Positions 1 through 60,582 of a stretch of DNA of 60,712 nt are shown here, piece by piece. Below the pieces are notes generated by a model, which saw only the letters and a program-made list of their open reading frames with translations, made no database searches and had not been told where the DNA came from. Location of the stretch: positions 1 through 60,712 of IMG/VR virus record IMGVR_UViG_3300045988_137581; one strand, written 5' to 3'. Numbering within the stretch: the first letter of the stretch is position 1; every line of letters starts with the position of its first letter. Both the position numbers and the translations under genes were made by a program. This DNA comes from a virus.

Positions 1-99
1 AAAAACAAAAAACAAGAAGTCATGAAAACACAAATCGAAGAACTTGAGACAATCGCACAAGATGTAAGAACCAGATTCGCATACACAAGTCGCGGAGAA
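1..99. repeat. End overlap identical to 60614..60712; unit length 60,613 bp, circular or terminally redundant
   Basis: Base-by-base comparison: aaaaacaaaaaacaagaagtcatgaaaac...cgcggagaa occurs at both ends. ORF 22..519 restarts at 60635. Confidence 0.9.
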
Positions 100-3127: not shown

Positions 3128-3132
3128 CCACA

Positions 3133-38881: not shown

Positions 38882-41800
38882 TTATAGAGCATCTATCAAT
38901 CTCACCTTTTTTACTACCTGCTTCTTCAACTCGTTGAGTTCTTTCTTTAACTTATCCTCTTCTTCCTTGGTTGTTGCCTCTTTCAACATTTTCTTGCTCT
39001 TTTTAATCTTGGAATAAAGATTCTTGTCGTCGAATGCAGCCAAATGAGCATATTCTTTCGACTTTTTTATTTCTTGCAATCTCTTAACCGCTTTTTTGTC
39101 GCCTTGGGCTTTATCTTTTTCATAGGCTTTTATCAAACGCATTGTCTCCTTATATTCTTCCTCTAATTGAAAGAACTCGTTATTCAAAGCTCTATTCTTC
39201 GTTCGTTCGTCTCCATTGGTTACGAACCTATTCACAAGAGGTATGTTTCGCCAATCAAAGTCTTTCCCAACCCCTGCCTCATACAACTTAACAAGTTGAT
39301 TTGGTAACGTCCAAAAGCCACCTCCATACGACCTTAACAAGTACTCTATTTCCGCAGGATTCAAATCTACCTTTCCTTTCTCATATCTTGTACCACCGCT
39401 CATTTCATTCAAATAAGCACACAAATCGACAATCTTAGTATTCGCATTCTTATACGCTTTCGTCCATTCCGGCATATTTTTATTGAATGGAGTGTCCTTA
39501 TATATCGGTAATCCGTACCATGAACGATTTTTCTGCACTTCAAGCATTGGCTTTATCGCACTCGGAGTAAACGGAGCTAACAAATCAAGCCCATCTTTAT
39601 TGTTTGTCTGCCCCTCCATTATATCGATAGGAGTAAGCTTCGATATTTGAGAAGCAAACTCCGCAACACTCAATGGCTCATTGTGGAACATTTTACCTCC
39701 TAACAATTCCCCCATTCCATAAATGGCTTGATATTCGATAGGCAAAGGTACTTTAATCCAACTCTTACCCGGACCCGGGAATACGAAGTTATTTCTCCTT
39801 ATGGTTTCGGGCAAGTCATAATAGCTGCCTCTTTTATCATCATCTCCGTCATCTCCATCACTAACCAATTTCTGTATAAACATTCCGAGAACGAACAATG
39901 CAGATGCAACACTTAACGACCTTCCGGGGTGTTGCGACAAAGCTTTACCGAAGTTACCGAACGTACCCTGTATCGCTGCATTCCAGAAGATAAACAGCGT
40001 ACGTCCGGCACCGCTGACGAAAGCACCGCTCTTGCCCAATAGAGTTTGACCCTGCGACTTCAAAAAACGGTCTCCCGCTCCTTTCTTGTTGAAGTTTACA
40101 CTTATTTCTTTTGCGTCGAATATCGAACGACCTATATCTCGTCCCAAACTGCGAGAGGTCATAAACGCAGCGAAACGAGCTTTCGTTTCGACAGAACGCC
40201 CTATTTCATCAAGCCAATTAGCGAAGTGTTTTCTCCATTCCTCAAAAGGCATCTTTTTATTCAACGTCTTTAATGCTTTCTCAATCTCTTTCTTATGTTC
40301 CTCCACGTCGAGCATTCGCCTGTAACCGGTCTCGCCTCCGTTGTCAAGGAATTGTTTGAACATAGCTTCCACTCTGTTGTTTGTATCAAGTGTACCTTTT
40401 CTGTACTTGGCAAACAACCCTTTCAACGACCACGCATTAACGAAGTAGTTTAACGCAAAACGTCTCCAATAATCAGCACCCTCTTTAACGAAAGCCATAC
40501 TGTTGGAATAGATTAAATCTCGCAAGAAGTTACTTGCAATGAAGTCCGGTTGAAGTGTGGTATATAATGCACTCAAAGTCCTGTTAACGTCTCCAACCAA
40601 TGAAATAATCGAACCGATAGAACCCCTCATATCGTTATTATCGGGATTTGTCAATCCATTTAACGCTTGTGCTGCTCTCGGATTTCCGTTGATTGTAATG
40701 ACTACATTTTTACCTCTACGCTTTACGATTACTTGATGCTGGTGCAAATCGCTATTATTCACAACCCTGTATGGGATATTGTCAGCCTCTCTGCCTCTCT
40801 TGTATTTTTCAGGCTCTTCTTCTGCCAATTGCATGAGTTTGTCATTGAACTCGGCTAATTTCCGCTCAACCTCTTCCGGAGTATCGCTCTCGTTCAATGT
40901 TGGCAACAACGGTTTCCATTCCCCGGCAACATCATCATATTGCAACCACAAATCGCTAATACTATATGCATCACTCGGGTGGTTGAGAACAAATGTCAAG
41001 AAACGATTTTTAACGAACCTATTCCTGTTACCCTGCATAATCGTACTCTCTGCCATTGATTGCAGATAAGCAAGAGGATTATCCGCCTTTGACCTACGAC
41101 CGTTCGCCTTCTTAATCGGAGCATTGAATGTCCCGTGGCGTTCGTTCAGGTACGCATACTCTTCATCGGCAGTTTTCTCGTCAAAACCTCTCAAAGGTAT
41201 GTAGTAATTGTACATACTCGATATAGCCTCGTAAGTCTCCTTGCTTATAAGACCGCACTCCAACGACTTGGATAAGATTGCATCATTTATCTCTTTCAAT
41301 AAATCCCATATAGGCTCGGTCTCGTGCATACTCTCGTATTCCGCCACCATTCGTTCCGCTTCCAACTCGGCTTCCGCAACGTCTTCTATTCCCGTCAATG
41401 CTGTAAGTCCGGCATAATCCCTTTGCCTGTTCTTCTCAATCATCTTTTCCAACTCCTCCTCGGATTTTCCTGATTTTTCGAGTTTAGACTTCGCATCTCG
41501 TTCAGCCATATAAACATTTCTTTCCAAGCCGTGCTTAGCCATCATGTATTCTATCAGTTCATCTCTTTCGTCGGCAGTTGTTGCCAATTTTGAAATAACT
41601 ACGTTCAACGGTTGGAAGAAAGTACGGTTGAACGCCTCCACCTCTTTTTCGTTAATACTCGACAGAGCGTTCTCTCCTGTATAAGCATTCTCGAAAGTAG
41701 GCACATCTGCAATATTGAAATCTTTCTTACCATTCGCCTCATACACAGACCCCATAAGCTCCTTCAATCCAAGCATACTATCCTGCATAGCCTCCTTGAA

Positions 41801-44800
41801 TTGATACATGCCTCCCTTTACTCTTTGGTTGTATATATGGGCAGCATACGCACGGTCTTTGACAACGAATTCGTTGTCAGGGTCGATATCGCGGAACATC
41901 AACTCGTCTTCTTTCTCGGCAGCCTTGTCCGAAAACTCTTTCGTTTCAGCATAGTCGCCCACCTTCAAGTCATACTGCTTTGCTATGTCCTCCGCCTCGC
42001 CCAAAATACTTTTATACTTACCCGGAGAAACGAGGTTCTGATAACTCCTCCACAAAATATAGCGAAGCTCATTATCGGAGAGAGCAACACCGCCGAAACC
42101 ATCGAAGCCAATCTTATGAAGCAAATCCATGAAAAGCTGCTTTATCTTGCTCCACCACCCCGCATTGAGGTTCTCGAAATTGGTATTCTCCGCAAGAGAT
42201 GCAAGATATTCCTCCGTAGCCGTTCGGAAATCCCAACCGTTCCTTGTTGCAAGAGCAACAATCTGCTCTCTTACCTGCATGTCGGCATTTGTAAACACAT
42301 TGTCAAGGAACGTATCAAAGTGTTCTCCGAACAACTGACGCAAACCATAGTGAGCTACCGCCTCGTGCAACAACGTCTGTTCGGCATCGAATGTGCTTGT
42401 ATGGTTAGGAATAACAATCGTTATCTTGCCCGTACTCTTACTGTAAAAACCTTTCGCACGCTTTTTCTTACCCTCCAAAGCATCTGCATCCGTAACAATC
42501 TCCACATTACCAAGATGCAGTTTCTCTGCAAGTTCATTGACCCTGTCAACCATTCTTCGACGCTCTTTCCTTGCAAACTCCTTGCGTTGGAACTGCGTGC
42601 GAAGAGGTCTACCTGCCAACTTCGACCACGGGTCGTTCTCAAACGACAACTCATCATCAGTGTATGATGCAACACCATCACGAGCAGAAATATCCGTGTT
42701 TATAGGATTCACTTCATTTAATAAATCCCTCATTACCCTATCCGCAACCTCTGTTGCAGAAGTATAATGAATATGTAAGAAGTCTGCAATACCTTTCCAA
42801 AACTTCTCCAAAGCTCGTTTCACTCGCTGCAAAGCATTTACCGCTTCTGCTTTCTCGAATACACTGTTTTCTCCCTCTGTCGCTTTGCGTGTCTCTTCTC
42901 TCAAACGTTCTGCACCTCGTCTTCCAGAGTACAACGCTATTACCTCCTCCGCAATCTCATCATCACTCTTCAATTCGGGATAACGCTTCGTTACCTCTTC
43001 CCAAACAGACGTGCCTTTCATCAACCCCACGACATTATTCCACTCTTTCGCATTACCGTTACGCAAAGCCTCAGCCCACAAATGGGCATACTCGTGGATA
43101 GGAGTTTCGGTATTTGCAATTCTCGTGTCGATGTATATCTTGCCATCGACAGTGAAGCCGTAAGCCTCGCCGTTCGCACCCTTGAAGAACCGAACATGGT
43201 CAACTATCTGTAAATCCCTTTCATTGAAGACAACATAGTTTTTCGCACCATCGGCACGACCGCCACGCAGATTGTCCGCAGGATATTTGATGCCGACATA
43301 ACCGAGAGAAGCAAGTAGTTCGCTCGCCTCTTTTTCTCCTATATATAAACTGATAGTCCTGTATAGAGTACGTCCGTTATAAACTTCGTCGAGGGAATCC
43401 GACAAATCTTTCTCCAACATCTCGTTTTCTGTTTCATCATCTATTCTTTTCTCACGCATGATGAATTCACCAACAGCCCCCATGTCGAAATCCTTTGGTA
43501 AAGGCTCGTTCCATTCCAAGTAGTTATTTCCGTTGTCCTCAGGGATTTCTACGGTATATAGGTGGCGTATCCGTCCTTGGCGTGAACGCTCCTCATTATA
43601 TTGTTCCTCCCTCATTGCTCTAAGAGCATCAAGTGCCGCTTTGTTTCTTTCAATAGCCGCCTTACGAAGAGCGGTCATTGTTTCGTCTTCTTTCTCGTTT
43701 CTCAGTATATTTTCATTTATTTTTATATTGGTTTCAAGGTCAGCGATAGCTGCTTCTTTTCGCTGTTCAAAAGAAACAGCTTGCAAATTATAGTTTTCTT
43801 GGTGTATAATAGCACCAACCGCCATAGAAACAGGAGTCGCTTTTCTACTACTTCTTCTTTTTTCCTCTGCAATTAGAAAACTTGTTTTTGCGTAATATTC
43901 GCCGATACCTTCTACCTCTGTAACATACGTACCCCAACCGTACGCTTGCTGCCCTTCACCCTCGCCCATATATGAATGGTCGAAAGCCTCGAACTCCGCA
44001 CCGCTGCCATGATACACTCTGTGTTCACGAAGATTATCGGCATTCACCTCTTGCCTTTCCGCAAGCCCCGTAGTATCTTTGAACTCGCCGCTATACAATG
44101 CTTGCTGAATGGAACGGACAATCTCAGCCAAAGGCTTACCCTCTGCCTTACGCAACTTAATAGCGTCATAGTAATACTCGACAATGTGAGCGTCTCCGTC
44201 ATTTGTCATACCGGTATTCACCTTTGGCGAAACAACAATACTGATTCCGCTCAATTCGTTTCTGCGGTCAAAGTTTGAGACCTTTGCATTGTGGTCTGCA
44301 AGGCGTATCGTAACGACCTTTCCGTTCTTTGTCTCGAATGTAGCGTATTCACTCTTGCTTCCATCTCGTGTTGCACCGAGAGCTTGGGCTACTTTACCTA
44401 CAAATGTTTTCGGTTGAGAAACACTTTCTGTTAACTCATTTGCAAGTTCTTCAATATTTTGTAGTATCTTTGCACCATCTGCACTTGAAATGACAGTTAA
44501 TGACCTCGGAGTTGCTCTGAGAGAGGCGGTTTCAAGTGCTCTTTTCTTTTTAGCCTGTTCCTTTGCATTGCCATTAGCCATATCGAGCACTCTTTGACCG
44601 ACCGCAGGGTCGTCGATAACCTCTATTCCGCTCCTGCGAATACGGTCTATAACAGCATCTCGAAGAACTTTCTCCTCTTTCGTCAAAGGAACTCTGTTTT
44701 TATCTTCCTTTCCGAACTTGATGCCTAAATCGCTTTCAACATTCTTGGCTTCAATGAATGGTACAGCTTCGACAAAAGTATCACCGTTCTCATCTTGAAA

Positions 44801-47800
44801 CTCTATGTGATGATATTCGCCATCCAAGCCCGAATATTTATGTCCCGGTTTAGGAACAAAACCACGTTCAATCGCATGTTTTGCACCGCTTGAAGCACTT
44901 ATCAATTCTCCACCATAATACTTTTCCAAGCTATCTATCAATTCATAAGCACCAAAACTGTATGACGAATACTCATTAAGCAGGTCGAATAAATCATCTG
45001 CATTTATACCGTTAAAGAATCTGTCGCCCCCTCTGAACCTGATATCGTCGGTATTTGTTGGGTTTTCAAAATCTTTTACTATCTTTGCAACAGAATCCAA
45101 ATCCAAATAGTCCACGTCAGCGAGATTGGTTCGCTGTTGGTCTATCAGGGTTTGGATTTTTTCTTTGTTCAGATATTCAGCTTTTCCTTGTACTATCCAG
45201 TTAAGCCATTTCGCATTGGTTTTAGGGAAAACGCCTCTGATACTTGAAATATCCAAACCATTTCGTTCTTGATTGAAATGTACGCCTACAAGGAATTGTT
45301 TCCCGTTGTGTTCGATACCTATGATAACATTCTTGGCATTGTCACCGTAGCGGAATACAGCCAACGGATTATTCAACTCCTTTACAAGGTCTTTGACTTC
45401 CGAAATATCAAATATGTGATTTTCCTGTGATGCCTTCTTTGAAAGTCGTGTAGAGGACAGTTCGATAGGGAGATGTGGGAAACCTGCACTTTGCAATATA
45501 AAGCCCGGCATACCTATTTGGTAAATATGTCCCTGTGGCAATGTACCGTCAATCTGTTGTTGTAGTTCTTCGTTAAACTTCTCGTTGACAGTTTCAATAG
45601 TATAATCTTCATCGCTTCTATACAGCGTATCCCCATTGTTCTCTTCCTCGTCCTCTTCCGTGCTTGTTATGCCGTCTGCCGTCTCGACGGAAGCGTCCAT
45701 ATCCGCATACTTAGCCTCCTTTTCCTCCAACTCTTTCTTCATCAATTCGGAGTACTCTTCGTATTGAGCCTGTGCCTGCTTCAATTCTTTCTCATACTCG
45801 AACGGTTTGCCCTCTCTCGAAAGCATTTGCTCCAATTCAGCCTCATTATGTCTCTTGCTTCGTTGTGCAGCTTCCAACTGTTCCGAAAAATCTTTACCCG
45901 TAAGTACGTTCGTGGTTATATCCTCCACGGCATTGCGGAGCAGGTTCTGTTTAACAGGTGTGTTCTCTATGCCGAGTTCCGGACATGAATAAGTCATCTT
46001 CCTTTCCGCCTGTGTAAACAGTGTTCTTCCCTCGCTTGCCGTCTTTCTCGACAAGTCGGTTGTAACGACAAAATCGAAATCACCTATCCTGATGGTCAGC
46101 TCTCGTCTTTGGTCTCCCGTTATCTCGCCGCTCTTTATCTTCTGCATATCGGCGAGGGCTTTCTTGTTATAGTCCTTGAAGAAGTCCTCCATTGCCTCGA
46201 CGGACGCAAAGCGTTGTTTGCCGACCGAAATCTCACCGAACCTGCCATTCTGGAACGCACTCTGCACAGCTTTCAAATAAGAACCATTGTCCTCGATACG
46301 TTGTTCCGCCTCCCTGATAAGCCCTTTCAGTTTTGGTTTCGCATTATGAATATACGTTTGGTCTGCCTCATACTGCTTCTTACGACTTGCATACTTACGC
46401 ATATTCTTCTCGGCATTGTTTTTCAGCATTGCATACTCGCTACCAGAGAGCTGGGCAATAGTATCTCCGAACACATCCTCCTCTTCTTCAAGAACACGGT
46501 TCACCATACTGTTTTCCATCATCTGCCTACCCCTCATGATGCTATCCGCAATAGCACCCTTGGTTTTTAGACGTTGGTATGCAGTAACGTCCAAACTATC
46601 CTCGACCCCGAAACGCAATACACGAACAGGCTTACCCATCTCCTTATGTATGTTGCCTTGTCGCAAAATACGACCGTTCCGCTGAGTGTAATCCATCGGA
46701 CGATTCGGAGCATCGAGATGAATCAAAGTGTGCAAGCGTTCCTGAATATTCACACCCGTACCGAGAGTAAAGGTAGAACCGAGTAAGACACGCACCTCGC
46801 CATGATTGAACTTATCAAAGATTGCAGCTTTCTTCTTGACTGTCATTCCGGACTTTATCACCACAATCTCGTCAGCCGGAACACCCTCCGCAATAAGCTT
46901 TGCACGAATATCCTCGTACAGGTTGAAGCCGCTTGCCTTGTTCTGATAGTTGTCTGCGAATATCGCAACAGTACCATTGTAGTCGGCAGTCTCTTTGAGA
47001 GAACGCAACGTTTGTCGCACAGCCTCATTCGTCTTGCTGTTCGGGTCGTCCTCTGCGTCAGCCTGCACCAATCGGGCATCGACGGCAGCAGCCTTGGCAA
47101 TACCGTACATGGTAAGCGGAATATGACTGTTCGCTTTTTTCTCTTTGCCGCTCATGTTATCGAACCTTTCGAGTTCAGACTTGACGAACTTCATTACGCT
47201 ACGCAAAGCACGTGTCTGCGGCAAATAGATGTCTTGTGCCTTTCCTCCCTCTAATTCGGGTATCTTCTCCATCACCTCCGGAGCTTCCTCCGTGAGGACG
47301 GTATCGGACACACCAGACCATATACGAACCAATTCAGGAAGATTGACATATCCTGCAAAACGGTTATTCTCCTTGAACTTGCCGCTTGTTGTGAACTCCA
47401 ACATCTGCTGAATGTTGCCGAAGTTACGGACAAAGTCGTCAAAGTAATAAATGCCGTACTCTTTCATGGTGTCGGCAGGCATAAGATAACGCATGAACGT
47501 CCAAATCTCTGCGGCAGTGTTACTGATAGGCGTACCCGTTGCGAAGACAACATTACGACCGTTATTCTTTTCCATTACCGCCTGAGCTTTCAAGAACACG
47601 CCTTGCGACTTCTTGCTGTATGACGGGTCGACACCCTTGACACCACGTTGCATGGCAGTGGCAAAACCGAGATGCTTATACTCATGAGCTTCATCGACAA
47701 GCAAGGCATCGATACCCATATCATCGAAGTTCTCCACATCATCAGTCATGCGGTCGAGCATTTCCATCGCTCTAACCTCTGCATTCTGCTTTGCTACGGC

Positions 47801-50800: not shown

Positions 50801-53800
50801 GCCCTCTAACTGCTGTAAAGGTCGTACGAAGACTCCGTCGCTCTGCGTTTTCCCCGAGCCAGCTCTTCCATTTCCGTTTTCTCCTCGTCTGTCAACTCTT
50901 CCGGTGTCTTGTTGTACTTCTTGCAGATTTCCTGTTCTGCTTCCTGCTCCGGCGTTCCTATCACTGTCGGCTGACAATCCTTTGGAGCGTAACGCAGCAT
51001 CATCTCTTTGTAATCCATCTTTGTTATTTTTTATTGAACCATCAGACAAGCTCAATTCGCCTGTCTGCTGCAAAGGTAGAGATTTTTCCTTTGACTGCTT
51101 TTCTCCCGATTTTGTTTTGTTCTCAACAGGCTTGATATCACTCCATTCAACCGTTTCATATAGGATAGGAGCAAGCCCTGTATCGAGAATAGGATTATGG
51201 TCTCCGTAGTCTTCAAAATCGTAGATGGTTGCTTCGACAGTCTTTTTATTTCTGCCTTGCGGAGTAAACAAGACTTTATCGCCACGCTTGAAACCATTAT
51301 AACCCTCATTGGCTTTTCTCTCGCTGTTACGTTGGCTTATGATTTCCTGCTTTGCCTGTTCGGCTTCTTCTTGGTGGGCTTGTTCGGCAACGACAACCTC
51401 CGCCGTAGTCATCGGTTCGTTGTGTTCCTTACCGAATGTGGCTATATCGAACTCTTGCACCTCGTTGTATGGTGTCAAATCGGTTGCAAAATCGCTGCTT
51501 TCCACCTCGGGCAAATCTCTCGCTCCATTGTAGAACGCTTTGAGGTACGGACGCACCACATCTCCCAAATCTGCAATCATGGCTGTTGCGTAATCGGCAA
51601 ACTTGCGTGAACCTTTCTCCAAATGATACACTGCCATCTCGATACCGATTGAAAGGATTTCGGGGTCTATGCCCACATTCAAGTTGTTCAATTTCTTACG
51701 CAAACGCTCACGCAGTTCTGCATAACGCTCATCGGTAACGAGCTTGTTGCCGCTCGGATTGCTTTTCGGTTTCTTCTTTTGCTTGGATAGACGTTCCCTC
51801 TCCACTTCGGCGGCAATACGCTCCGCCTGTGAGAATATATCGTCTTCCTTCGCTGTTTTCGCTTCTTGTTCTTCTATAAGTGCTTTTAGTATCGCAGCCT
51901 CGTTTTCCGACAACATAATCTTGTCGTTCTCGTATGCGTTCCATGCCCCGACAAATCCGCCATACATATCCGACACGGTTTCGATTAAATCTCGCTCCGC
52001 TCTGGTGCTTCCGTAGAGTTGCTTACCTATCTTCCATTTGACATCGCGGCTGTCGGCTCTGTTCCTTGCGTTAGCCTTGAACTTTTCAGGTTTTCCTGTC
52101 TTCTCCCATTTTTCACCTTTCAGAATTCTAACCTCCGACTGTCCAGCTTCTTTTGTTTGTTGTTCTGCTGTTTCTGTCTGTCGGGTTTCGGTAACCTTAT
52201 TGATGTCCGCAAGTGAAACAGGCTGAGCGTCTGCCACTGCTTCTTTATTGCCGACGACTGTTTCTGCCAACTGCCTCGCACTCTCTTCGCTACGCATCAT
52301 GAAGCCGCCCTGCTTTGCATCGTACCAACCTCGCTCGGCTTTGGCAAGTTCTTTTGCAGCTCTGTACTGCTCCTTGCTCAATGTATCCGCAAATTTCACA
52401 AGGTGCATATCAAGAACCTTGCCTCTTTTGGTGGTATATTGTGCCGGTTCTATGGTGTAAGTTGCAGGATTATTTGCAACAGTCTCTTTTTTTACTTTTT
52501 TGTATTCAGAAAACTCCTTTGTCTTGCGATTGCTGCTGTCTATCCACTTCTCGAACTCTTCGAGAGAAGCCTGCGTTATACGCAACGTGTGTTTGTCTGC
52601 CCAACCGTTTTCATAGTTGCTAAGGTATGCTTTATAAGCTTCATTGATGTCGTTGAAGCCAAGCATAACCTTATGTTCATCAAAACTGCCGTCCTCATTG
52701 TACTGGTCAACGACAAAGACCTTTTGTCCGTCCCAATTGTCTATATCATCCGACAAGAATACATCTATATGGTCTCCGTCCACACTCTCCGTCCCACGAA
52801 TATAGCCGTAGGTGTTGTTCATCTTCGTTTCCCATGTCCTACCGTTGGCATCTACACCTCTGCGTACAGAGCCTTTCGGTTGCTCAATGCTTATGTCGAA
52901 CTTGCCAATCCGAACATGTCCTTTCTTGTAGTTGCCTGCTTCTTTCTGCTTTTCGGTGGGGTCGGTATCGACTTCTGCCTCTGCTTGTGCGATTTTTTCG
53001 CCTAATTCATCGCCATTTCCTGTTTTTGTCGTACCTTTGTCGTCGGATAATTCCTGACCAGTCGGATATTGAACGAAATTGGGTCGTTCCAGAAGTGACG
53101 ATTGTTCAGGAGTTATTTTTTTACTCCTGTATATCACCTCTTCATTCTTTGATAGATTTGCATTATTCCTACGTCCAAAAACAGTAGAAATAGCATTTAC
53201 TTCTATTTCACGACCAGCGTTTTTTACATCAACTCCAACAACGACATACTCGCTGTTTTCGGTTTCAAGTGTAGTATAAATACGATAGGAATCCTCTCTA
53301 TCTGTAATTCTGGAAACGGCAAACGGATTTTGAAGAGCTTGGGGGAGTTGCTCCCAAACCTGTTCGGAAAGCGAATGAGAATTATCCTTACTAATATGTC
53401 GTGCAATAACTCCATATTTGATAGTAAATTTATCGCCACGCAATCCAAGTTCTTGCATAAACCTTGGAGTTTGTGCAATATCAAAAAAAGACCGCTGGAA
53501 TAATTTTGAAGCGACCTCTTTACCTTTTGAATATAGAGTTCGTACTACATCAAGAAAAGATTGTGATTCGACTACTTCTCCATTGCCTTGGCTATCTCCG
53601 CCAACTCTTCCTCCACTGTCGGTTTGTGGTTCAGTACCCTTACTATGTTCTCTTCCTCCAACGTCTCCATTGCTTCCTCGTCGCCCTCTTTCGCTCTTCT
53701 GAGTATCGATACCCACACCATTATTTCCAGCTTGTCCATTCCTATTTTCATTGTAGTCTATATTTAATACTTCTTTGATAGCCTGAGCAAGTGTTCTCGG

Positions 53801-56800
53801 CGTATTGTCGGGTGTCCCGAACAAATCCCCCTTCCTCGTCCCTTGAATCAGGTCGTACATGTCGGTGAACGAATCCTGAACGAACTTTTGGGTACGCCCC
53901 TTGTACATCGCCGCAAGAACGAGTGCAAAGTTACTGAATTTCTCCGCAGGGAGGTAACTTTCTCCCGTGGCATCGTCGTATTGATACTGCTTAGCCCAAT
54001 TTTCAACCGCTTTTCTTGCTGCCTCATAGTTTCTTGCATTGGCGAACTCATCATACTGCATTAAAGCATGGAATGCACGGACGGAGTTCTGTATCTCCGT
54101 CATCATACGCTCGCTTTCCGGGCTTGCATTATCCCTGTATGCAGTAGCGAGGATAGCTTTTTGAGCTTTTGCAGGCATGGCATTGAACATTTCTTCGAGA
54201 CGACTGTTTCCATTTTGGAAAATGTGGCTGACAACAATACCTCTCAAATCATTCTTCGCCTCCGCAGTGAGATTACCCTTGGAATCGAATGCACTCTTAT
54301 ATTGAGTGTCGGTGATATACCCTTTACGATTCAAGTAAGCCAACACCTCCGCTCCGTTCTTGTCTATAAGTTCTGCCAAAGACAAATCCTCCTCATTGGA
54401 AGCAAACAACGTGTTGAAGAACGTTCCTATATCCGTACCCATCTTCTGCACGGTGTTCTTCGGCTTAATCCTCTCTACGCCTCCGCTCTCCGTATCCTTT
54501 GCCTCGTACTGACCGAGATTGACTGCTTCCTCATCGCTCACATCGACCATATTGACAAGCACAGGATTTTTCATTGCTTCTATTTCCGCCCTGTCGAGAC
54601 CCAATCTCTCGGCATTGTCGAGAAGATACTGTTTGTATTTCTCGGCTTGGTCTTTGTGCTGTGCATACATCGCTTTCAATGCACCGCTTCGGTTATTGCC
54701 CTGTATGACCTCACCACGAGCATTGACGGTCGGAGCTCCGGTATAAGCCGTTACAGAGGAAGTAATTTCCTCCGGTCTTATATGTGCAGCCATACGGTTT
54801 AGTGCAGCTCTGCTTGCATTATCCACTCTCTCTTTCGGTTGTGCTTCGTCGATGAAGTGTACGGGGTTTCTTTGACCTCCTTGGTGGCTTGGTTGCAATT
54901 CGTCGGCTTCTATAAGCACGGCTCTACCTTTCACCGTCTTATCGTTGGAGAACTTCACCTCCACCTCTCTACCGGTTGAATGGGCGACAGGTTCTTGACG
55001 CTCCACCTTATGACCGTTCACACGCCTGTAACCTCTTGCCCGTGCCTCCTGCGGAGTGTCGTCTATCACATCGGGAACACCGTTAAGCGTACCATCGGCA
55101 ACAACCTCGGGTGCAACCGCAGCCTGACGAGAACCCATTGCCTGTGCAGCTTGTCTTATTTTGCCTGCCTCCACGATAGCTTGCCAAGCCTCGACATCTT
55201 TCTTTGCCTGTTCGATGGCAGCCATACGTTCTTTCTCCGCCGCAATCTTCTCCGCAACGGTTTCCCCGCCTTTCGACTTCGCTTTCTCTACCGCTTTCAA
55301 TGCCTTCACCTTATCGGCAAGCATACTCTCGGCAACGGACATGGCAACCTCGACATTACCCTCGCACTGCTCTGTGATGGCATCGAAAGCAACAGCAGGT
55401 TCTCCCTGCTCATATATAGGATTGCCATCGATATCATGAGGCAACATGCTGACGGCACTGTGCTGTTCGGTTTGTGCAATTTCCTCGTTTGACCCATTGC
55501 CGTTTTCCTGCTCGGATAAAGGAGCTGCAAACAGTCCGCCGTCTGCATCTTTCGCACTCTGCTGCGGTTCTCGTCTTTCCAACTCCCTGCCGTTATGACT
55601 GACAGCCATAGAGGCAAGCTCTTCGGGGGTAATGGCAATAGTGTATTTCCCATTGATGGGTTTGTCCAAATCGATGATTAACGTATCATCTTCCGGTATG
55701 TAATCCTGCACCACGCCATTGATGGACACTCCATCGACCTCCAAAACCACTTCATCATCGACCCTATAATTCTCTGCTACTTCTACATCTTCTAATGGCA
55801 TTGCGGAAGTTTCCGCTTCGTCCTGCTTCTGCAATTCTGCATACTTCGCCCGCACCTTTGCCTTTCTCGCTTCATCGACATTCGCCTGCAACTCTTCAAG
55901 AGACGCAAACGGAACGACTTCACCCGTTGCAGTCTTAATGATATAACTACCATCTTCATGCTGCATTTGTCCGTCTTCCGTCGACTGCAACTCTGCCTCC
56001 ATCAGTTCGCCGGTAGTCGGAGAAACAAACGGATACATCACACCGCTTACAGGCTCGACCTTCCCATCGAAATCCCTCTGCCTGTCCATCATGCTCTGTT
56101 GCTCGGTTAAAGAAAGTTCAAGGTCGATAAGCGGCTCGACCCCCTGCACATCATCAAGCAAAAGCAACTCCTTCGGCGAAATCTGCGAACGATTACCCTC
56201 CTCATCTGCAACTATGATGGAATCATCGGAGTTGGAAACATCGACACCTGTACTATCGCTATATGATGCAACCACATTGCCACTTATTATATATACACGC
56301 TTACCACCGATGGTTGTCGCAGCGTGAACCATTCCGTCACCCGTGTGAGTAATACTTCCATACTTCGCCCTAACCATTTCCTCGGTGAAAGACGCAGTAT
56401 CCTTATACTTCTGTTCCACACCGTTATACGACTGCTTTGCAGTCAGGTAATCCATTGCAGCGGTACGTGCGTCGCCGCTGTACGAGTTCGCAATTCCGAT
56501 AGCAGTGGCAACATCTGCATTATCCAATCTATCGAAATCATCGCCCAACACATTTCTCGCACGCTCCGCAAAGAACTGCAACTCCGCCTGTATATCCGCC
56601 TTGTCTGTACCCTGTGCATTATAACCACGAGAAAAGCTTGTATTCAATTTTGCAAGCTCTGAACTCTGTTCCTCACCCGTTCTTGCGGCAGAAAGGTTGA
56701 AGCCTCGCAACGTCATGGACTTGGTGATATAGTCAGCCGCAGCCATCTTTTCACGCTCATTCATCGTACCATCATTCGCAATGGCATTGAACAAAGCACC

Positions 56801-58720
56801 CATATCTTCGTTGGTGGTGTTGTCGATAGTGTTCTTTATGCCTTGCCACTCCTGCTGTCCGAATACCTCGCCGCATCTTGCATCAGCTTTATTGACATCA
56901 TGATTGTACTTCGCATAACTCGCAGCTGTCAATCCGCCTTTCGCCGCACCCATCACACCCATAGATAGAGCCATGCCGACAAGTATATCCTTATTAAAGT
57001 CCTTGGTGAACAAAAGATTAACCCTCTTACCGTCGGCATCTACGGTATAAGCGTCATCGAGATTGAACGCTGTACGGAGTAATTGACCTGCATACTCTTC
57101 TCCGACCTCTCCGAAATAGTCGCTGATACCCATCTGCTCGAATACCTTGCCTACGCCTCCGTATAGGTTCTTAACGCTCTGCATCTTGCCTGTCGATAGC
57201 ACAGACGTGAGCCACTTGGGCGAGAAAACCTTGCTCAACTTATCACCGATTACCCTCTCGATGCCCCCGAAGTGACCTCCTAACATCTCGGAATACACCT
57301 CGATAAGATTGCTCATGCCTGCTTGCCATGCAGCCTCACCTATATCCTTGCCTTTCGCAATCTTGAATCTGCCATCTCCCGTTTGCGTAACCCCACCTGT
57401 CATTCTGCCCAACGCATCGGCAGCAACGCTACCTGCACCAAGAGTTGCATTGGTGATTGCAGCCTTACCTATATCGTCGGCAACTATGCCAAGATTTTTG
57501 ACAAGCACATTGCCCGCACCTTTGACACCGTTCGCCTTGATGTACTTCCTGACACCTTGCTCGCCAATCTCTTTAATCGTCTGCTTGCCGACAATCTTCG
57601 CCGCGCCTTTGCTGCCGGCAGAGAATAGAGACCCCGGCGACAAGCCAATTTCCAACATGAATGGAAACATCTCTCCCGTCATGTTCCCGTACTTATACCA
57701 ACTGCTGTAATTCTGACCGTAGAGATTATCGAAGTTCCTCCTCGTTGCCATTGCGTTAACGAACTCTTGCTCCGCATCACTCTCCGCAACTCCCTTATTC
57801 TTGCTCGCAATATCGTATGCTGTTATACCCTTGTTGATGTCCTCATACGACATCGTAAGGAATGACTTCATGCCATCGGAAAGCCCGTCCCATATACCTT
57901 TCCAGAAGCCCGGGCTTGTGTTGCCCCGAGTATCCTCGACAGTCTTGATTGCATTATTCAGTTCGCTGATGGCAGCCATGTAAGCATTCGCTTCCTTGTC
58001 TTGTCCGAGAACATCCTCCGGAAAGAACGAACCGTGCTGTTCTGCACGATTCAAGCTCTCGACCCAACGCACGAATGGAGATTTCTCCTCTCTATCCTTA
58101 TTATATTGTTCCCTTACCGCAGTTTCCCGTTCATTCAGTTTGCGTACAAGCCTGTCTCGCTGCATCTTCAACTGAACAATAGACAGTTCGGAATTATCAT
58201 ATTGCGACACTGCCTCTGCAACCTCCTTATTGCGACCACGTTGTGCGGTAAAGCCTAATTGCCCGTACACAGAGGGGTCATCACGTTGTGCTGCAAAGCC
58301 TAGTTGTCCGTACGTAGAGGGGTCTTTACCCAGACTTGCTGCCTCAGGATTAAACGAGTATCCCATCTCCGTAATTCGATTGCCTGCGTTGTGCAATTCA
58401 TCCGCAGCTTTCGCTATGTCTCTCTGTTGCCCGAACAACTGCGGTCGTCGCTTTGCAAAAGCCTTGCTGTAATCATCGGCAAGACTGCGTTCGTAGCTCT
58501 CATAATCTCCAAGGTCAAACTCTCCTGCTTGCGAAATAGCATCATATACTTTCTTCCTATTATCGGGAGAACCGAGTTTATCAACGAACTCAGCTTCATC
58601 TTTTACTCCTAACTCATCAGGAGTATATCCGAAATCTGTAAGATTTTTATATAGACTTTTAGCAACTCCGTATTCCTCGGCTTGCTCGTGTGCTTTTCTC
58701 TTTTCTGGGTTATCTTGCAT
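38882..58720 (-). CDS. giant multidomain polyvalent virion protein (6612 aa): ParB-like, pyrophosphatase-like, N6-adenine methyltransferase, SNF2/DEAH helicase, duplicated nuclease-like modules, metallopeptidase motifs, Gly-rich and TM segments
   Basis: Uninterrupted 19,839-nt ORF in the standard code. The motifs read by eye are listed in the findings. Confidence 0.9.
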   Translation of the reverse strand: MQDNPEKRKAHEQAEEYGVAKSLYKNLTDFGYTPDELGVKDEAEFVDKLGSPDNRKKVYDAISQAGEFDLGDYESYERSLADDYSKAFAKRRPQLFGQQRDIAKAADELHNAGNRITEMGYSFNPEAASLGKDPSTYGQLGFAAQRDDPSVYGQLGFTAQRGRNKEVAEAVSQYDNSELSIVQLKMQRDRLVRKLNERETAVREQYNKDREEKSPFVRWVESLNRAEQHGSFFPEDVLGQDKEANAYMAAISELNNAIKTVEDTRGNTSPGFWKGIWDGLSDGMKSFLTMSYEDINKGITAYDIASKNKGVAESDAEQEFVNAMATRRNFDNLYGQNYSSWYKYGNMTGEMFPFMLEIGLSPGSLFSAGSKGAAKIVGKQTIKEIGEQGVRKYIKANGVKGAGNVLVKNLGIVADDIGKAAITNATLGAGSVAADALGRMTGGVTQTGDGRFKIAKGKDIGEAAWQAGMSNLIEVYSEMLGGHFGGIERVIGDKLSKVFSPKWLTSVLSTGKMQSVKNLYGGVGKVFEQMGISDYFGEVGEEYAGQLLRTAFNLDDAYTVDADGKRVNLLFTKDFNKDILVGMALSMGVMGAAKGGLTAASYAKYNHDVNKADARCGEVFGQQEWQGIKNTIDNTTNEDMGALFNAIANDGTMNEREKMAAADYITKSMTLRGFNLSAARTGEEQSSELAKLNTSFSRGYNAQGTDKADIQAELQFFAERARNVLGDDFDRLDNADVATAIGIANSYSGDARTAAMDYLTAKQSYNGVEQKYKDTASFTEEMVRAKYGSITHTGDGMVHAATTIGGKRVYIISGNVVASYSDSTGVDVSNSDDSIIVADEEGNRSQISPKELLLLDDVQGVEPLIDLELSLTEQQSMMDRQRDFDGKVEPVSGVMYPFVSPTTGELMEAELQSTEDGQMQHEDGSYIIKTATGEVVPFASLEELQANVDEARKAKVRAKYAELQKQDEAETSAMPLEDVEVAENYRVDDEVVLEVDGVSINGVVQDYIPEDDTLIIDLDKPINGKYTIAITPEELASMAVSHNGRELERREPQQSAKDADGGLFAAPLSEQENGNGSNEEIAQTEQHSAVSMLPHDIDGNPIYEQGEPAVAFDAITEQCEGNVEVAMSVAESMLADKVKALKAVEKAKSKGGETVAEKIAAEKERMAAIEQAKKDVEAWQAIVEAGKIRQAAQAMGSRQAAVAPEVVADGTLNGVPDVIDDTPQEARARGYRRVNGHKVERQEPVAHSTGREVEVKFSNDKTVKGRAVLIEADELQPSHQGGQRNPVHFIDEAQPKERVDNASRAALNRMAAHIRPEEITSSVTAYTGAPTVNARGEVIQGNNRSGALKAMYAQHKDQAEKYKQYLLDNAERLGLDRAEIEAMKNPVLVNMVDVSDEEAVNLGQYEAKDTESGGVERIKPKNTVQKMGTDIGTFFNTLFASNEEDLSLAELIDKNGAEVLAYLNRKGYITDTQYKSAFDSKGNLTAEAKNDLRGIVVSHIFQNGNSRLEEMFNAMPAKAQKAILATAYRDNASPESERMMTEIQNSVRAFHALMQYDEFANARNYEAARKAVENWAKQYQYDDATGESYLPAEKFSNFALVLAAMYKGRTQKFVQDSFTDMYDLIQGTRKGDLFGTPDNTPRTLAQAIKEVLNIDYNENRNGQAGNNGVGIDTQKSERGRRGSNGDVGGREHSKGTEPQTDSGGRVGGDSQGNGEVVESQSFLDVVRTLYSKGKEVASKLFQRSFFDIAQTPRFMQELGLRGDKFTIKYGVIARHISKDNSHSLSEQVWEQLPQALQNPFAVSRITDREDSYRIYTTLETENSEYVVVGVDVKNAGREIEVNAISTVFGRRNNANLSKNEEVIYRSKKITPEQSSLLERPNFVQYPTGQELSDDKGTTKTGNGDELGEKIAQAEAEVDTDPTEKQKEAGNYKKGHVRIGKFDISIEQPKGSVRRGVDANGRTWETKMNNTYGYIRGTESVDGDHIDVFLSDDIDNWDGQKVFVVDQYNEDGSFDEHKVMLGFNDINEAYKAYLSNYENGWADKHTLRITQASLEEFEKWIDSSNRKTKEFSEYKKVKKETVANNPATYTIEPAQYTTKRGKVLDMHLVKFADTLSKEQYRAAKELAKAERGWYDAKQGGFMMRSEESARQLAETVVGNKEAVADAQPVSLADINKVTETRQTETAEQQTKEAGQSEVRILKGEKWEKTGKPEKFKANARNRADSRDVKWKIGKQLYGSTRAERDLIETVSDMYGGFVGAWNAYENDKIMLSENEAAILKALIEEQEAKTAKEDDIFSQAERIAAEVERERLSKQKKKPKSNPSGNKLVTDERYAELRERLRKKLNNLNVGIDPEILSIGIEMAVYHLEKGSRKFADYATAMIADLGDVVRPYLKAFYNGARDLPEVESSDFATDLTPYNEVQEFDIATFGKEHNEPMTTAEVVVAEQAHQEEAEQAKQEIISQRNSERKANEGYNGFKRGDKVLFTPQGRNKKTVEATIYDFEDYGDHNPILDTGLAPILYETVEWSDIKPVENKTKSGEKQSKEKSLPLQQTGELSLSDGSIKNNKDGLQRDDAALRSKGLSADSDRNAGAGSRTGNLQEVQQDTGRVDRRGENGNGRAGSGKTQSDGVFVRPLQQLEGKNSRNNHSERGKDHAPTSVDARIEANFKAVELAKQLLESGEEATEEQKEVLRKFSGWGGLGKVFDEHANYSHNGRSYYNEPTLENKRLRELLSEEEYQQALMSANSAYYTPAYVIDTLWDIAEQMGFKGGNILEGSAGIGNILGQMPASISANSDIQAVEIDGISGAILSLLYPDAKVEIQGFEQTRVPNGSVDLAVTNVPFVTGLRVNDTTGDNDLSKKFHNIHDFCIAKNVRKLREGGLGIFITSSGTLDNSRKLRDWVVNEGEADFVGAFRMNNKTFGGTGVTSDIIVIRKRVNGRKSAQAIDVSTVTGERVAEYDTGEKRKVKGQYEPVVKNLSMDYNTYFMEHPERMAGEMRFGFEEGNRYRPTSKGLYPKQGTNQKELLSEFVKSFTQEEVGERSTEEKKNDEVAPDKKVGEMFVKDGKLYINSISNAQLLDVNSNKVKGHTKAECFEAYSAIKKALADVLAYQTENESDDGLKPLLDKLNKAYDDFVETYGHFNKNTAIAFLRNDVDYANVSSVETYKEQGDGKGGVNKLFGKADVMDKRVVEKVKEPNPTNVKEGIVASVFKFGHVDVPYIAERLGRSIDDVKNEIIENGYGFEDPVTRKVEASYQYLSGNVREKLSQAEANNENGEFDRNIKALQEKIPMDIPAHLIDFTLGSSWIDPELYDEYVKERTGVDAKFTLVGGTWFMKEPSSTDYEKNRAMGVKSKVLNSTTMGHELIEAAIQNKTITVSTTRKNWDGKSETITDKDATQACANKIDEIRQDFKDWAKQKMQSDPDMSAKMERVYNDTFNNFVPMSIPDEFAPEHFAGANPRYTMRPHQSKAIVRGTQQSVLLAHEVGTGKTFTLISTAMEMRRLGTARKPMIVVQNATVGQFVADAKELYPNAKILMLEDNDRNVEGRKNFYAKIRYNDWDMIIVPQSVFERIPDSEDRQYQYIKEKIDEKVTSILQMKEQDPYGDSLIVKQAEQEVERLEEELAELSSVAVKKNTAAEEKKRAVAKQNAEVRAMEMLDRMTDDVENFDDMGIDALLVDEAHEYKHLGFATAMQRGVKGVDPSYSKKSQGVFLKAQAVMEKNNGRNVVFATGTPISNTAAEIWTFMRYLMPADTMKEYGIYYFDDFVRNFGNIQQMLEFTTSGKFKENNRFAGYVNLPELVRIWSGVSDTVLTEEAPEVMEKIPELEGGKAQDIYLPQTRALRSVMKFVKSELERFDNMSGKEKKANSHIPLTMYGIAKAAAVDARLVQADAEDDPNSKTNEAVRQTLRSLKETADYNGTVAIFADNYQNKASGFNLYEDIRAKLIAEGVPADEIVVIKSGMTVKKKAAIFDKFNHGEVRVLLGSTFTLGTGVNIQERLHTLIHLDAPNRPMDYTQRNGRILRQGNIHKEMGKPVRVLRFGVEDSLDVTAYQRLKTKGAIADSIMRGRQMMENSMVNRVLEEEEDVFGDTIAQLSGSEYAMLKNNAEKNMRKYASRKKQYEADQTYIHNAKPKLKGLIREAEQRIEDNGSYLKAVQSAFQNGRFGEISVGKQRFASVEAMEDFFKDYNKKALADMQKIKSGEITGDQRRELTIRIGDFDFVVTTDLSRKTASEGRTLFTQAERKMTYSCPELGIENTPVKQNLLRNAVEDITTNVLTGKDFSEQLEAAQRSKRHNEAELEQMLSREGKPFEYEKELKQAQAQYEEYSELMKKELEEKEAKYADMDASVETADGITSTEEDEEENNGDTLYRSDEDYTIETVNEKFNEELQQQIDGTLPQGHIYQIGMPGFILQSAGFPHLPIELSSTRLSKKASQENHIFDISEVKDLVKELNNPLAVFRYGDNAKNVIIGIEHNGKQFLVGVHFNQERNGLDISSIRGVFPKTNAKWLNWIVQGKAEYLNKEKIQTLIDQQRTNLADVDYLDLDSVAKIVKDFENPTNTDDIRFRGGDRFFNGINADDLFDLLNEYSSYSFGAYELIDSLEKYYGGELISASSGAKHAIERGFVPKPGHKYSGLDGEYHHIEFQDENGDTFVEAVPFIEAKNVESDLGIKFGKEDKNRVPLTKEEKVLRDAVIDRIRRSGIEVIDDPAVGQRVLDMANGNAKEQAKKKRALETASLRATPRSLTVISSADGAKILQNIEELANELTESVSQPKTFVGKVAQALGATRDGSKSEYATFETKNGKVVTIRLADHNAKVSNFDRRNELSGISIVVSPKVNTGMTNDGDAHIVEYYYDAIKLRKAEGKPLAEIVRSIQQALYSGEFKDTTGLAERQEVNADNLREHRVYHGSGAEFEAFDHSYMGEGEGQQAYGWGTYVTEVEGIGEYYAKTSFLIAEEKRRSSRKATPVSMAVGAIIHQENYNLQAVSFEQRKEAAIADLETNIKINENILRNEKEDETMTALRKAAIERNKAALDALRAMREEQYNEERSRQGRIRHLYTVEIPEDNGNNYLEWNEPLPKDFDMGAVGEFIMREKRIDDETENEMLEKDLSDSLDEVYNGRTLYRTISLYIGEKEASELLASLGYVGIKYPADNLRGGRADGAKNYVVFNERDLQIVDHVRFFKGANGEAYGFTVDGKIYIDTRIANTETPIHEYAHLWAEALRNGNAKEWNNVVGLMKGTSVWEEVTKRYPELKSDDEIAEEVIALYSGRRGAERLREETRKATEGENSVFEKAEAVNALQRVKRALEKFWKGIADFLHIHYTSATEVADRVMRDLLNEVNPINTDISARDGVASYTDDELSFENDPWSKLAGRPLRTQFQRKEFARKERRRMVDRVNELAEKLHLGNVEIVTDADALEGKKKRAKGFYSKSTGKITIVIPNHTSTFDAEQTLLHEAVAHYGLRQLFGEHFDTFLDNVFTNADMQVREQIVALATRNGWDFRTATEEYLASLAENTNFENLNAGWWSKIKQLFMDLLHKIGFDGFGGVALSDNELRYILWRSYQNLVSPGKYKSILGEAEDIAKQYDLKVGDYAETKEFSDKAAEKEDELMFRDIDPDNEFVVKDRAYAAHIYNQRVKGGMYQFKEAMQDSMLGLKELMGSVYEANGKKDFNIADVPTFENAYTGENALSSINEKEVEAFNRTFFQPLNVVISKLATTADERDELIEYMMAKHGLERNVYMAERDAKSKLEKSGKSEEELEKMIEKNRQRDYAGLTALTGIEDVAEAELEAERMVAEYESMHETEPIWDLLKEINDAILSKSLECGLISKETYEAISSMYNYYIPLRGFDEKTADEEYAYLNERHGTFNAPIKKANGRRSKADNPLAYLQSMAESTIMQGNRNRFVKNRFLTFVLNHPSDAYSISDLWLQYDDVAGEWKPLLPTLNESDTPEEVERKLAEFNDKLMQLAEEEPEKYKRGREADNIPYRVVNNSDLHQHQVIVKRRGKNVVITINGNPRAAQALNGLTNPDNNDMRGSIGSIISLVGDVNRTLSALYTTLQPDFIASNFLRDLIYSNSMAFVKEGADYWRRFALNYFVNAWSLKGLFAKYRKGTLDTNNRVEAMFKQFLDNGGETGYRRMLDVEEHKKEIEKALKTLNKKMPFEEWRKHFANWLDEIGRSVETKARFAAFMTSRSLGRDIGRSIFDAKEISVNFNKKGAGDRFLKSQGQTLLGKSGAFVSGAGRTLFIFWNAAIQGTFGNFGKALSQHPGRSLSVASALFVLGMFIQKLVSDGDDGDDDKRGSYYDLPETIRRNNFVFPGPGKSWIKVPLPIEYQAIYGMGELLGGKMFHNEPLSVAEFASQISKLTPIDIMEGQTNNKDGLDLLAPFTPSAIKPMLEVQKNRSWYGLPIYKDTPFNKNMPEWTKAYKNANTKIVDLCAYLNEMSGGTRYEKGKVDLNPAEIEYLLRSYGGGFWTLPNQLVKLYEAGVGKDFDWRNIPLVNRFVTNGDERTKNRALNNEFFQLEEEYKETMRLIKAYEKDKAQGDKKAVKRLQEIKKSKEYAHLAAFDDKNLYSKIKKSKKMLKEATTKEEEDKLKKELNELKKQVVKKVRLIDAL

Positions 58721-59589: not shown

Positions 59590-59592
59590 ACT

Positions 59593-60072: not shown

Positions 60073-60090
60073 AACAATATATATTATTGC

Positions 60091-60098
60091 CAAAAATA
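60091..60098 (-). promoter_or_regulatory. -7 box TATTTTTG (minus strand) for the ejection-protein/polyvalent/portal operon
   Basis: CAAAAATA on the + strand, 19 nt upstream of ATG 60072. Confidence 0.45.
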
Positions 60099-60184
60099 AG
60101 GAGAAGCAAAAAGAACTAAGGGTTATCTTTATCCTTTCCCGCAAAACACACATGATTTCGGGATAATTAGTCCCTAAAAATCAG

Positions 60185-60551: not shown

Positions 60552-60582
60552 TTTGCACGTGTCGAAAAAGGTTGTATCTTTG
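60552..60582 (+). promoter_or_regulatory. Bacteroidota-type promoter TTTG-N19-TATCTTTG driving the early genes across the junction
   Basis: TTTG at 60552-60555 and TATCTTTG at 60575-60582. The spacing matches the consensus. Confidence 0.6.

Follow-up and report, generated by a model that had tools for sequence, protein, structure and literature searches.

Polyvalent proteins, which have up to 15 domains each, are predicted to deliver several enzymes as a payload together with phage DNA (Iyer et al. 2017, PMC5512222). In the Dar system of the myovirus P1, DarB (2,255 aa) and DdrB (995 aa) are two distinct proteins whose packaging depends on DarA, Hdf and other partners, and darB abuts the portal gene. 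To our knowledge, very few polyvalent proteins have been tested experimentally. Another giant protein that is encapsidated and ejected is the virion RNA polymerase (RNAP) of phage N4 (gp50; 3,500 aa), whose C-terminal region carries a zincin-like motif and is needed for encapsidation. Giants of Bcep22-like (Lessievirus), Ralstonia and Klebsiella podophages are annotated as ‘DarB-like antirestriction’ or ‘PLxRFG domain protein’ (phrog_10089), and gp69 of Burkholderia phage JC1 (4,515 aa, 22.1% of the genome) has been detected by mass spectrometry in virions purified on caesium chloride (CsCl), with 51 unique peptides (PMC9144972). Closest to the locus described here are the giants of two cultured temperate Bacteroides phages, gp55 of BKO1-TP3 (GenBank PQ571269; 5,553 aa, 25.7% of the genome, annotated ‘DarB-like antirestriction’) and gp3 of BS-TP4 (GenBank PQ571277; 5,391 aa, 25.2% of the genome, annotated ‘hypothetical’), which go undiscussed in the paper on these isolates (Gut Microbes 2025, PMC12694917). 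Here we analyse a 60,712-nt stretch of viral DNA (IMG/VR record IMGVR_UViG_3300045988_137581, positions 1 to 60,712; hereafter the window), in which one open reading frame (ORF) on the minus strand, 38882..58720, encodes a protein of 6612 aa that we call the giant. The giant is a large addition to the DarB-like polyvalent giants already known, with relatives already deposited and partly annotated, and no new kind of system: the many unrelated effector domains, the marker domains and the portal-terminase context of the proteins of Iyer et al. are all present here, with no categorical difference, in a very long example from a gut Bacteroides phage. We consider it likely that the giant belongs to the phage-type polyvalent proteins, in their DarB-like, or ‘PLxRFG’-LPD38, class, and that it is packaged, is ejected with the DNA and acts against host defences.

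The gene, its domains and their relation to P1 DarB and DdrB

The giant is encoded by a single stop-free frame with an ATG start and a sole, terminal stop (ORF listing and translation), and its product has a mass of 741.7 kDa and a pI of 5.3; given the nucleotide frequencies of the coding strand, a run of 6612 codons without a stop would arise by chance with a probability of about 1e-181. Since the window ends overlap by 99 nt, the assembly is circular and the genome has 60,613 bp, of which the giant ORF makes up 32.73% and, together with a 2647-aa ORF (20149..28092), 45.8%. An earlier reading of the letters and translations, made without database searches (the sequence-only reading), had described one standard-code ORF occupying 32.7% of the genome, or about 46% with the 2647-aa gene, and these statements hold. 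The same 6612-aa product is encoded on an independent public contig of 60,668 bp, a second public contig matches the window at 99.995% identity across 22 kb, and the portal protein encoded by the gene next to the giant is found, identical, on at least 23 public contigs. A public protein fragment, P0242, is 91–96% identical to the giant at aa 912–1916 and 2061–5939 and covers an inserted cassette at aa 4372–5346 together with both of its junctions. Because the product recurs on an independent contig, the 22-kb match extends the agreement and P0242 spans both junctions, the giant is not chimeric; independent contigs show no frameshift, stop or chimera inside the ORF, which is thus confirmed as a real gene, with an artefact excluded.

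The assignment to the polyvalent class is carried by marker domains and by homology to P1. Three domains that are restricted to phage-type polyvalent proteins and tied to virion contexts (PMC5512222), InPase, the DdrB-type ParB and LPD38, match the giant above their gathering scores (Table 1). Three collinear blastp segments against P1 DarB reproduce its order of LPD36, gamma-class N6-adenine (N6A) methylase and superfamily 2 (SF2) helicase: the methylase aligns with DarB residues 72–274 (31% identity, E 1.7e-20), and the helicase with residues 654–1200 (E 2.5e-17) and 1483–1632 (E 1.9e-5). The ParB module aligns with residues 60–164 of P1 DdrB, at that protein’s N-terminus (E 2.3e-12). Judged by this homology, the giant is a fusion of homologs of two components, DarB and DdrB, that are separate in P1, although identity to the P1 Dar proteins is only 22–31%. 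Consistent with this, the PHROG annotated ‘DarB-like antirestriction’, phrog_10089 (4647 columns), covers aa ~1904–4387 (E=0) and the C-terminal anchor (8e-77). The likeness to polyvalent proteins and P1 DarB proposed by the sequence-only reading is thus borne out by family-specific Pfam matches, a DarB-like PHROG over ~2,500 aa, collinearity with P1 and adjacency to the portal gene.

Significant profile matches (InPase, ParB, LPD38, MuF_C twice and helicase) also recovered most of the modules that had been picked out by eye. The ParB-like module read at aa 1255–1355, the inorganic-pyrophosphatase-like module read at 1926–2044 and the SNF2/DEAH helicase read at 3457–4057 all have Pfam matches, for the helicase to SNF2-rel (2e-8), ResIII (1.6e-5) and Helicase_C (7e-12) at aa 3459–4022. 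The two ‘nuclease-like’ copies are MuF_C/PBECR modules, the first at aa 1777–1868 (PF18819, E 7e-12), and the label is apt because MuF_C is the predicted RNase domain PBECR (Iyer et al. 2017, PMC5512222). The N6-adenine methyltransferase read at 2691–2935 is supported by P1 DarB homology and by motifs, with no Pfam match above threshold (Eco57I E 0.059): an LPD36-like GxGU motif (GWGG at 2696) precedes TP at 2750–51, motif I (EGSAGIG) at 2774 and motif IV (N-V-P-F) at 2839–2842. NCBIfam returned just weak, sub-threshold helicase similarities, for example to DISARM DrmD. The catalytic motifs of the giant are intact across the protein, including EGSAGIG, N-V-P-F, GTGKT, DEAH, DGDHIDV, the H/Y/E-D residues of the ADP-ribosyltransferase (ART) module and HExxH. 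The InPase module matches residues 637–761 of PDB 9b41 chain L (‘gp19 Portal’; E 5.5e-24) and so also sits on portal C-termini inside capsids, in keeping with the InPase-portal fusions noted by Iyer et al. (PMC5512222); some 300 tblastn matches in Pseudomonas phages probably stem mostly from this domain.

The inserted cassette contains a PBECR module, an uncharacterised module, the ART module and a HEYAH module. What had been described as a YHGS...GWGTY...NYVVF module at aa 4895–5175 is identified through its homologs as ART-PolyVal-type: the copy in the giant scores 20.6–21.9 bits against a PF18760 gathering score of 31.2, over the first third of the profile only, and 29 of 32 aligned homologs match PF18760 (best 2.8e-30). 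In this alignment (A1) H4904 and Y4932 are invariant and E5167 and D5169 at least 90% conserved, a pattern that fits the H-Y-D active site described for ARTs of polyvalent proteins (Iyer et al., PMC5512222), and in an AlphaFold2 (AF2) model these residues lie at or just past predicted strands. A helical insert of ~115 aa (aa ~4937–5050) interrupts the copy; the model has a pLDDT of 69.8, and a Foldseek search of the PDB, dominated by the helical insert, gave no match at E <= 0.001. The HEYAH motif, read at 5209, is indeed a canonical, conserved HExxH, and 74–79% identical copies of its module are found in many Bacteroidales proteins. Its best peptidase-family match is just SprT-like (E 0.084), and we rejected assignment as SprT-like or DUF6782 since such matches in homologs fall in a different module. 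The ART and HEYAH modules recur as a unit in 73 other Bacteroidales proteins, with differing neighbours.

The C-terminal anchor is the most widely shared part of the giant, with 54–56% identity to the giants of BKO1-TP3 and BS-TP4 and 23% to JC1 gp69 (hhalign probability 99.95% over 976 columns). It comprises, in order, an HExxxH peptidase-like domain (HEAVAH, 5452–5457), an invariant PLRG(F) at 5842–5846, a hydrophobic helix at 6268–6286, an acidic run, LPD38 at 6299–6496 and a terminal coiled coil at 6517–6606. The HEAVAH motif reported before is present and at least 90% conserved (alignment A2); it is actually the HExxxH variant of zincin-like peptidases described by Iyer et al. (PMC5512222), it stands opposite a canonical HEAFH in JC1 gp69, and in the AF2 model it lies on a helix that follows a helix and three strands (pLDDT 75–89). 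Neither the HEYAH nor the HEAVAH module has a peptidase-family match in Pfam, PDB sequences or Foldseek searches, and neither sequence profiles nor Foldseek linked the anchor to a solved structure in the PDB. Its 66 structural matches in BFVD (E <= 1e-3) are all C-terminal pieces of phage giants, and the enzymes upstream of them vary (lytic transglycosylase, RelA/SpoT, methylases, L,D-transpeptidase). Weak support was found for a tail with transmembrane helices, since one strongly hydrophobic segment only (6268–6286) is present; this segment and the acidic run that follows are conserved as far as JC1.

At the other end, the region aa 241–1250 has no PHROG match. Used as the query against 1.84 billion cluster representatives, this region found 601 relatives, in which it lies always at residue ~230–450 of giants. 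The Gly-rich, hydrophobic stretch reported at 330–620 stands in part: a Gly-rich, LPD14-like stretch at aa 472–607 is weak here (E 4e-4), the diverged relative P0375 has a significant match (3.5e-14) at the equivalent position, and the hydrophobicity amounts to one moderate segment, aa 579–597. About 40% of the giant, namely most of aa 1–1250, 4531–4890 and 5480–6290, has no assigned domain. The search for internal repeats by self-blastp found none, the two MuF_C copies being too diverged. Antisense ORFs of 150–351 aa lie opposite the giant (41612–42667 (+) and six others); we rejected these as nested genes, as stops occur in most relatives compared (3–14 stops for the 351-aa ORF), and they are chance ORFs, in contrast to iddB, which is nested in P1 ddrB.

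Table 1 Features of the giant and its flanking genes, with positions in the window
Feature	Position in the giant (aa)	Position in the window (nt)	Strand	Basis or remark
N-terminal region	1–240	58001..58720	-	Little conservation with BKO1-TP3; kept in near-identical relatives (P0241: 93% identity across aa 1–1072)
Conserved N-proximal clade region	241–1250	54971..58000	-	42–45% identity to cultured and IMG/VR relatives
DdrB-type ParB	1259–1391	54548..54946	-	Pfam PF18763, E 7.7e-27; GNNRS at 1341
Variable region 1	1707–1905	53006..53602	-	Disordered linkers on both sides (1653–1723, 1884–1917)
InPase (type I inorganic-pyrophosphatase-like)	1923–2060	52541..52954	-	Pfam PF18823, E 3.4e-53; DGDHIDV at 1981
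Linkers and helical segments	2078–2690	50651..52489	-	No Pfam match; aa 2323–2408 common to JC1 gp69
N6-adenine methyltransferase	2691–2990	49751..50650	-	P1 DarB homology; PHROG 11801, E 2e-59; motifs
SF2/SNF2 helicase	3280–4140	46301..48883	-	GTGKT 3484, DEAH 3676, Helicase_C 3913–4022
Inserted cassette (975 aa)	4372–5346	42683..45607	-	Missing from BKO1-TP3; GC3 (G+C content at third codon positions) 0.38–0.43
MuF_C/PBECR copy 2	4428–4523	45152..45439	-	Pfam PF18819, E 2.1e-18
Conserved module	~4690–4890	44051..44653	-	Precedes ART module in homologs (A1 consensus); no Pfam match
ART-PolyVal-type ADP-ribosyltransferase-like module	4895–5175	43196..44038	-	Shown via homologs
HEYAH module	5190–5346	42683..43153	-	Canonical HExxH; H5209 invariant, E5210 and H5213 at least 90% conserved
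Conserved C-terminal anchor	5347–6612	38885..42682	-	Pfam LPD38, E 2.3e-33; PHROG 14770, E 1.6e-251
Portal gene		36835..38805	-	76 nt downstream of the giant, same strand; PHROG 156, E 9.6e-98
Two small genes (285 aa, 186 aa)		58732..60153	-	Directly upstream of the giant; common to cultured relatives

Proposed packaging and delivery, and alternative explanations

The giants of the Bcep22 type share with this one a methylase-helicase core and an anchor of ~1,000 aa with a peptidase motif, hydrophobic helix and LPD38, and their genomes are likewise ~60 kb. Core residues 1473–3099 of JC1 gp69 are collinear with aa 2613–4322 of the giant (E 1.5e-160), and the anchor matches with E 4.9e-38. Identity to Bcep22-type giants is only 23–28%, however, and the motif that is HExxxH here is HExxH in JC1; relative to them the giant adds the ParB, InPase, two PBECR modules and the ART, and the N-terminal soluble lytic transglycosylase (SLT) of Bcep22-type giants has no counterpart, as no SLT or lysozyme match was found in aa 1–1250 (Pfam, PHROGs, NCBIfam). 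The gene lies directly upstream of the portal gene here and at the far end of the virion module in JC1. Because this collinear homolog is found in purified virions, we infer that the giant is packaged too.

In the mechanism we propose, the giant would be made late, loaded in few copies into the procapsid beside the portal, ejected together with the DNA, and active in the first minutes of infection. The LPD36-N6A-methylase-SNF2 block and the DdrB-type ParB would shield incoming DNA from restriction. Host RNA, nucleotide pools or signals, and proteins would be the targets that the two PBECR RNase-like modules, the InPase and the ART attack or rewire. The zincin-like modules, HExxH and HExxxH, may cleave the polyprotein within the disordered linkers or have host proteins as substrates, and the N-proximal region and the C-terminal anchor would form a constant chassis that carries the packaging and ejection functions. 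An anti-defence action of this kind is suggested by the domain content of the protein.

Several observations weigh against this interpretation. For the giant, as for its Bacteroides relatives, packaging, ejection, processing and enzymatic activity are things that we infer. No significant P1 DarA match was found within the giant (profile E 0.018; none by blastp or phmmer), Hdf not having been compared and the other genes of the window not exhaustively so, and Pfam searches gave no MuF N-terminal (Phage_Mu_F) domain, the part that associates with the portal, MuF_C occurring alone, twice. The ART copy falls below the Pfam threshold and its fold is not confirmed by Foldseek, methylase motif IV is N-V-P-F and deviates from NPP(Y/F), and neither peptidase-like module matches a Pfam peptidase family. 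For the anchor, AF2 confidence is modest (pLDDT 61.6), one clearly hydrophobic helix alone speaks for a membrane role, and there is no similarity to the encapsidation region of the N4 virion RNA polymerase: a relation to the C-terminal 1,400 aa of gp50 was tried and is not supported (hhalign E 0.21, probability 0.3%; hmmsearch not significant). The giant, unlike gp50, has no RNAP module.

We think it unlikely that the giant is mainly a structural ejection protein of the ejectosome or internal core, whose conserved ends line a conduit for DNA across the envelope, as do T7 gp15/gp16 and P22 gp7/16/20, with the enzymes as secondary passengers. Such a role would suit the conservation of the N-proximal region and anchor over hundreds of giants in which the enzymes vary, the conservation of the hydrophobic helix and acidic run from Bacteroides phages to JC1, and the presence of lytic transglycosylase or L,D-transpeptidase domains in some BFVD relatives; in coliphage PTXU04, moreover, a 2,198-aa polyvalent protein is a fitness gene and not merely accessory (PMC11879866). 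The giant itself, however, has no detected peptidoglycan hydrolase domain, only one strong hydrophobic segment and no similarity in fold to ejection proteins of known structure, and a structural role would be compatible with delivery of a polyvalent payload and not exclusive of it.

It is very unlikely, in our judgement, that the giant stays unpackaged and acts in the producing cell, by methylating progeny DNA or by late manipulation of the host, or from a prophage. The phage is of temperate type with an integrase-like gene, packaging is known for no Bacteroides-phage member, and no recognised capsid-targeting domain (MuF-N, DarA) was found, Hdf not having been compared; against this stand the presence of the homolog JC1 gp69 in virions, the conserved position beside the portal in the head-gene block, and the ties of InPase, DdrB-ParB and LPD38 to virion contexts. 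That an assembly chimera or a missed frameshift fused several real genes has a negligible probability, for although the gene is interrupted in 5 of 80 IMG/VR relatives and in contigs from several further metagenome samples, 75 of the 80 retain one frame, the interruptions are due to frameshift or nonsense lesions, of which at least one falls within a methylase domain, and the contigs, portal copies and P0242 junctions described above speak for the intact gene.

Exchange of cassettes and size among relatives

The comparison asked whether modules are swapped among related contigs. A map of backbone and inserts, drawn from a comparison with 82 relatives, places the conserved backbone at aa 241–1706, 1906–2077, ~2294/2535–4371 and 5347–6606, and variable inserts at aa 1707–1905, ~2078–2535 and 4372–5346. 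The junctions of the inserts coincide with predicted disordered, low-complexity linkers (1653–1723, 1884–1917, 2174–2205, 2297–2327, 2533–2609 and 4342–4373). With BKO1-TP3 and BS-TP4, the giant has in common aa 241–1706 (41–44% identity) and the anchor; the InPase is 71% identical in BKO1-TP3, as is the methylase-helicase block, which is shared with BKO1-TP3 only, the entire DarB-like core of BS-TP4 being replaced by other sequence. The giant is ~1,060–1,220 aa longer than these two versions, which both are without the 975-aa PBECR-ART-HExxH cassette and differ in the insert at aa 1707–1905. Both regions absent from BKO1-TP3 (variable region 1 cannot be aligned to it) start with a PBECR module, and their GC3 is 0.25 and 0.38–0.43, respectively, against 0.48–0.56 in the backbone. 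The cassette at aa 4372–5346 is whole in none of the 80 IMG/VR relatives examined; P0242 keeps it at 91% identity, and P0243, 95% identical elsewhere, is without aa ~4459–5344. Taken together, these comparisons of sequence show that related phages keep the backbone and trade the predicted effector cassettes that lie between the chassis parts, with linkers as the points of exchange.

We regard as possible, rather than probable, an extension of this finding in which the giant is an injection platform, with a constant chassis of LPD14-containing N-proximal region and anchor that provides encapsidation, self-processing and passage through the Bacteroides envelope, and with cassettes that recombination swaps at the linkers on short evolutionary time-scales. 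Such swapping would liken the giant to polymorphic toxin systems, and the PBECR-ART-HExxH cassette would be a recent acquisition, because its GC3 is lower and it is present or absent among proteins that are more than 90% identical elsewhere. If this is true, the cassettes found across this abundant clade of gut phages could be read as a list of the counter-defence activities that answer the immune systems of Bacteroides.

Members of the clade are frequent in data from the human gut, with 217 IMG/VR contigs coding for relatives of the helicase block at 78–84% identity, and they devote between a quarter and a third of the genome, or even more, to one polyvalent gene. Size distributions were drawn from IMG/VR loci, of which 80 were examined, and from the search of cluster representatives. 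Closed single frames of 4,880–5,770 aa are common among the 80 loci, one is of 6,269 aa, and many are still open at 6,100–6,515 aa or more. One open locus, when extended, proved to be an uninterrupted ORF of 6,938 aa (3621–24434) on the 50,897-bp contig IMGVR_UViG_3300045988_098753, of which it occupies ~41%. This relative has a different N-terminus and no C-terminal anchor alignable by blastp, and may be a distinct sub-lineage. Among the best 150 of the 601 cluster representatives, 88 are at least 4,000 aa, 54 at least 5,000 aa and 14 at least 6,000 aa long, and two, of 6,743 and 7,236 aa, are longer than the giant. By size, the giant thus ranks among the largest members of its class and is not unique, and the sequence-only reading overstated the case in calling its size and number of modules exceptional, given syntenic giants of 5,391–5,553 aa, relatives of 6,743, 6,938 and 7,236 aa and polyvalent proteins with up to 15 domains in Iyer et al. 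PHROGs already holds giant families that cover this protein (phrog_10089 and, at the C-terminus, phrog_14770).

The interruptions in relatives look like lesions or sequencing errors and not like designed gene boundaries. The break in L004–L006, from several samples, separates motif I from NPPF within a methylase domain; L015 and L058 each have one frameshift, L038, a prophage of an isolate genome, has three, and L076 and L078 have an in-frame stop. Natural fission of the gene at linkers was accordingly rejected as a general statement. Short matches were likewise rejected as a sign that giants are normally split, many being contig-end truncations, and so was a common 5,644-aa ‘short allele’ beside an identical portal, which is a contig-end truncation that is 99.97% identical across its last 3,307 aa.

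The cultured members BKO1-TP3 and BS-TP4 make packaging, processing and anti-restriction accessible to experiment in Bacteroides, and the map of modules, with its constant chassis, linker-bounded cassettes and an ART cassette that comes and goes, guides where to cut and what to compare.

The phage and the genes around the giant

Judged by its genes, the phage is a tailed, temperate-type Bacteroides phage with a P22-type portal and an SU10-type capsid protein, the latter recognised by an SU10_MCP call in the identical gene of a public contig. Other recognised genes encode the large terminase, RecT, an SbcC-like nuclease, a replication initiator, a DnaC-like loader and an integrase-like protein. 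The terminase and capsid genes are also near the giant, which is located in the head-morphogenesis region. The portal is 77% identical to those of BKO1-TP3 and BS-TP4, where the same order is kept (two small genes, giant, portal), and the synteny of giant and portal extends to metagenomic contigs.

The integrase-like ORF (1946–2644, -) is short, at 232 aa, and what it matches in the integrase profiles is their C-terminal part. It may be a truncated gene, and a truncation would matter for the ability of the phage to lysogenise. The 2647-aa neighbour (20149–28092, -), earlier called a ‘fibre’, has a sole match, to PHROG 14959 (unknown function, E=0). Its homolog BS-TP4 gp14 has been reported as the target of a diversity-generating retroelement (DGR). 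A DGR acting on the neighbour in this phage was rejected: because no direct repeat of at least 50 nt resembling a template and variable repeat (TR/VR) was found in window positions 1–38900, the phage may be without a DGR. A Bacteroides-type -7 promoter motif, TAnnTTTG (here TATCTTTG), is found at 60575–60582 (+), upstream of the first ORF (22..519), and is consistent with a Bacteroidota host.

Of the two small genes upstream of the giant, the first encodes a low-complexity, K/E-rich product of 285 aa and the second a 186-aa product with a hydrophobic stretch at its N-terminus. Both are conserved with BKO1-TP3 gp56/gp57 and BS-TP4 gp2/gp1. The two genes upstream of the giant of JC1 code for virion-associated proteins, and the two small products here could be packaging partners of the giant.

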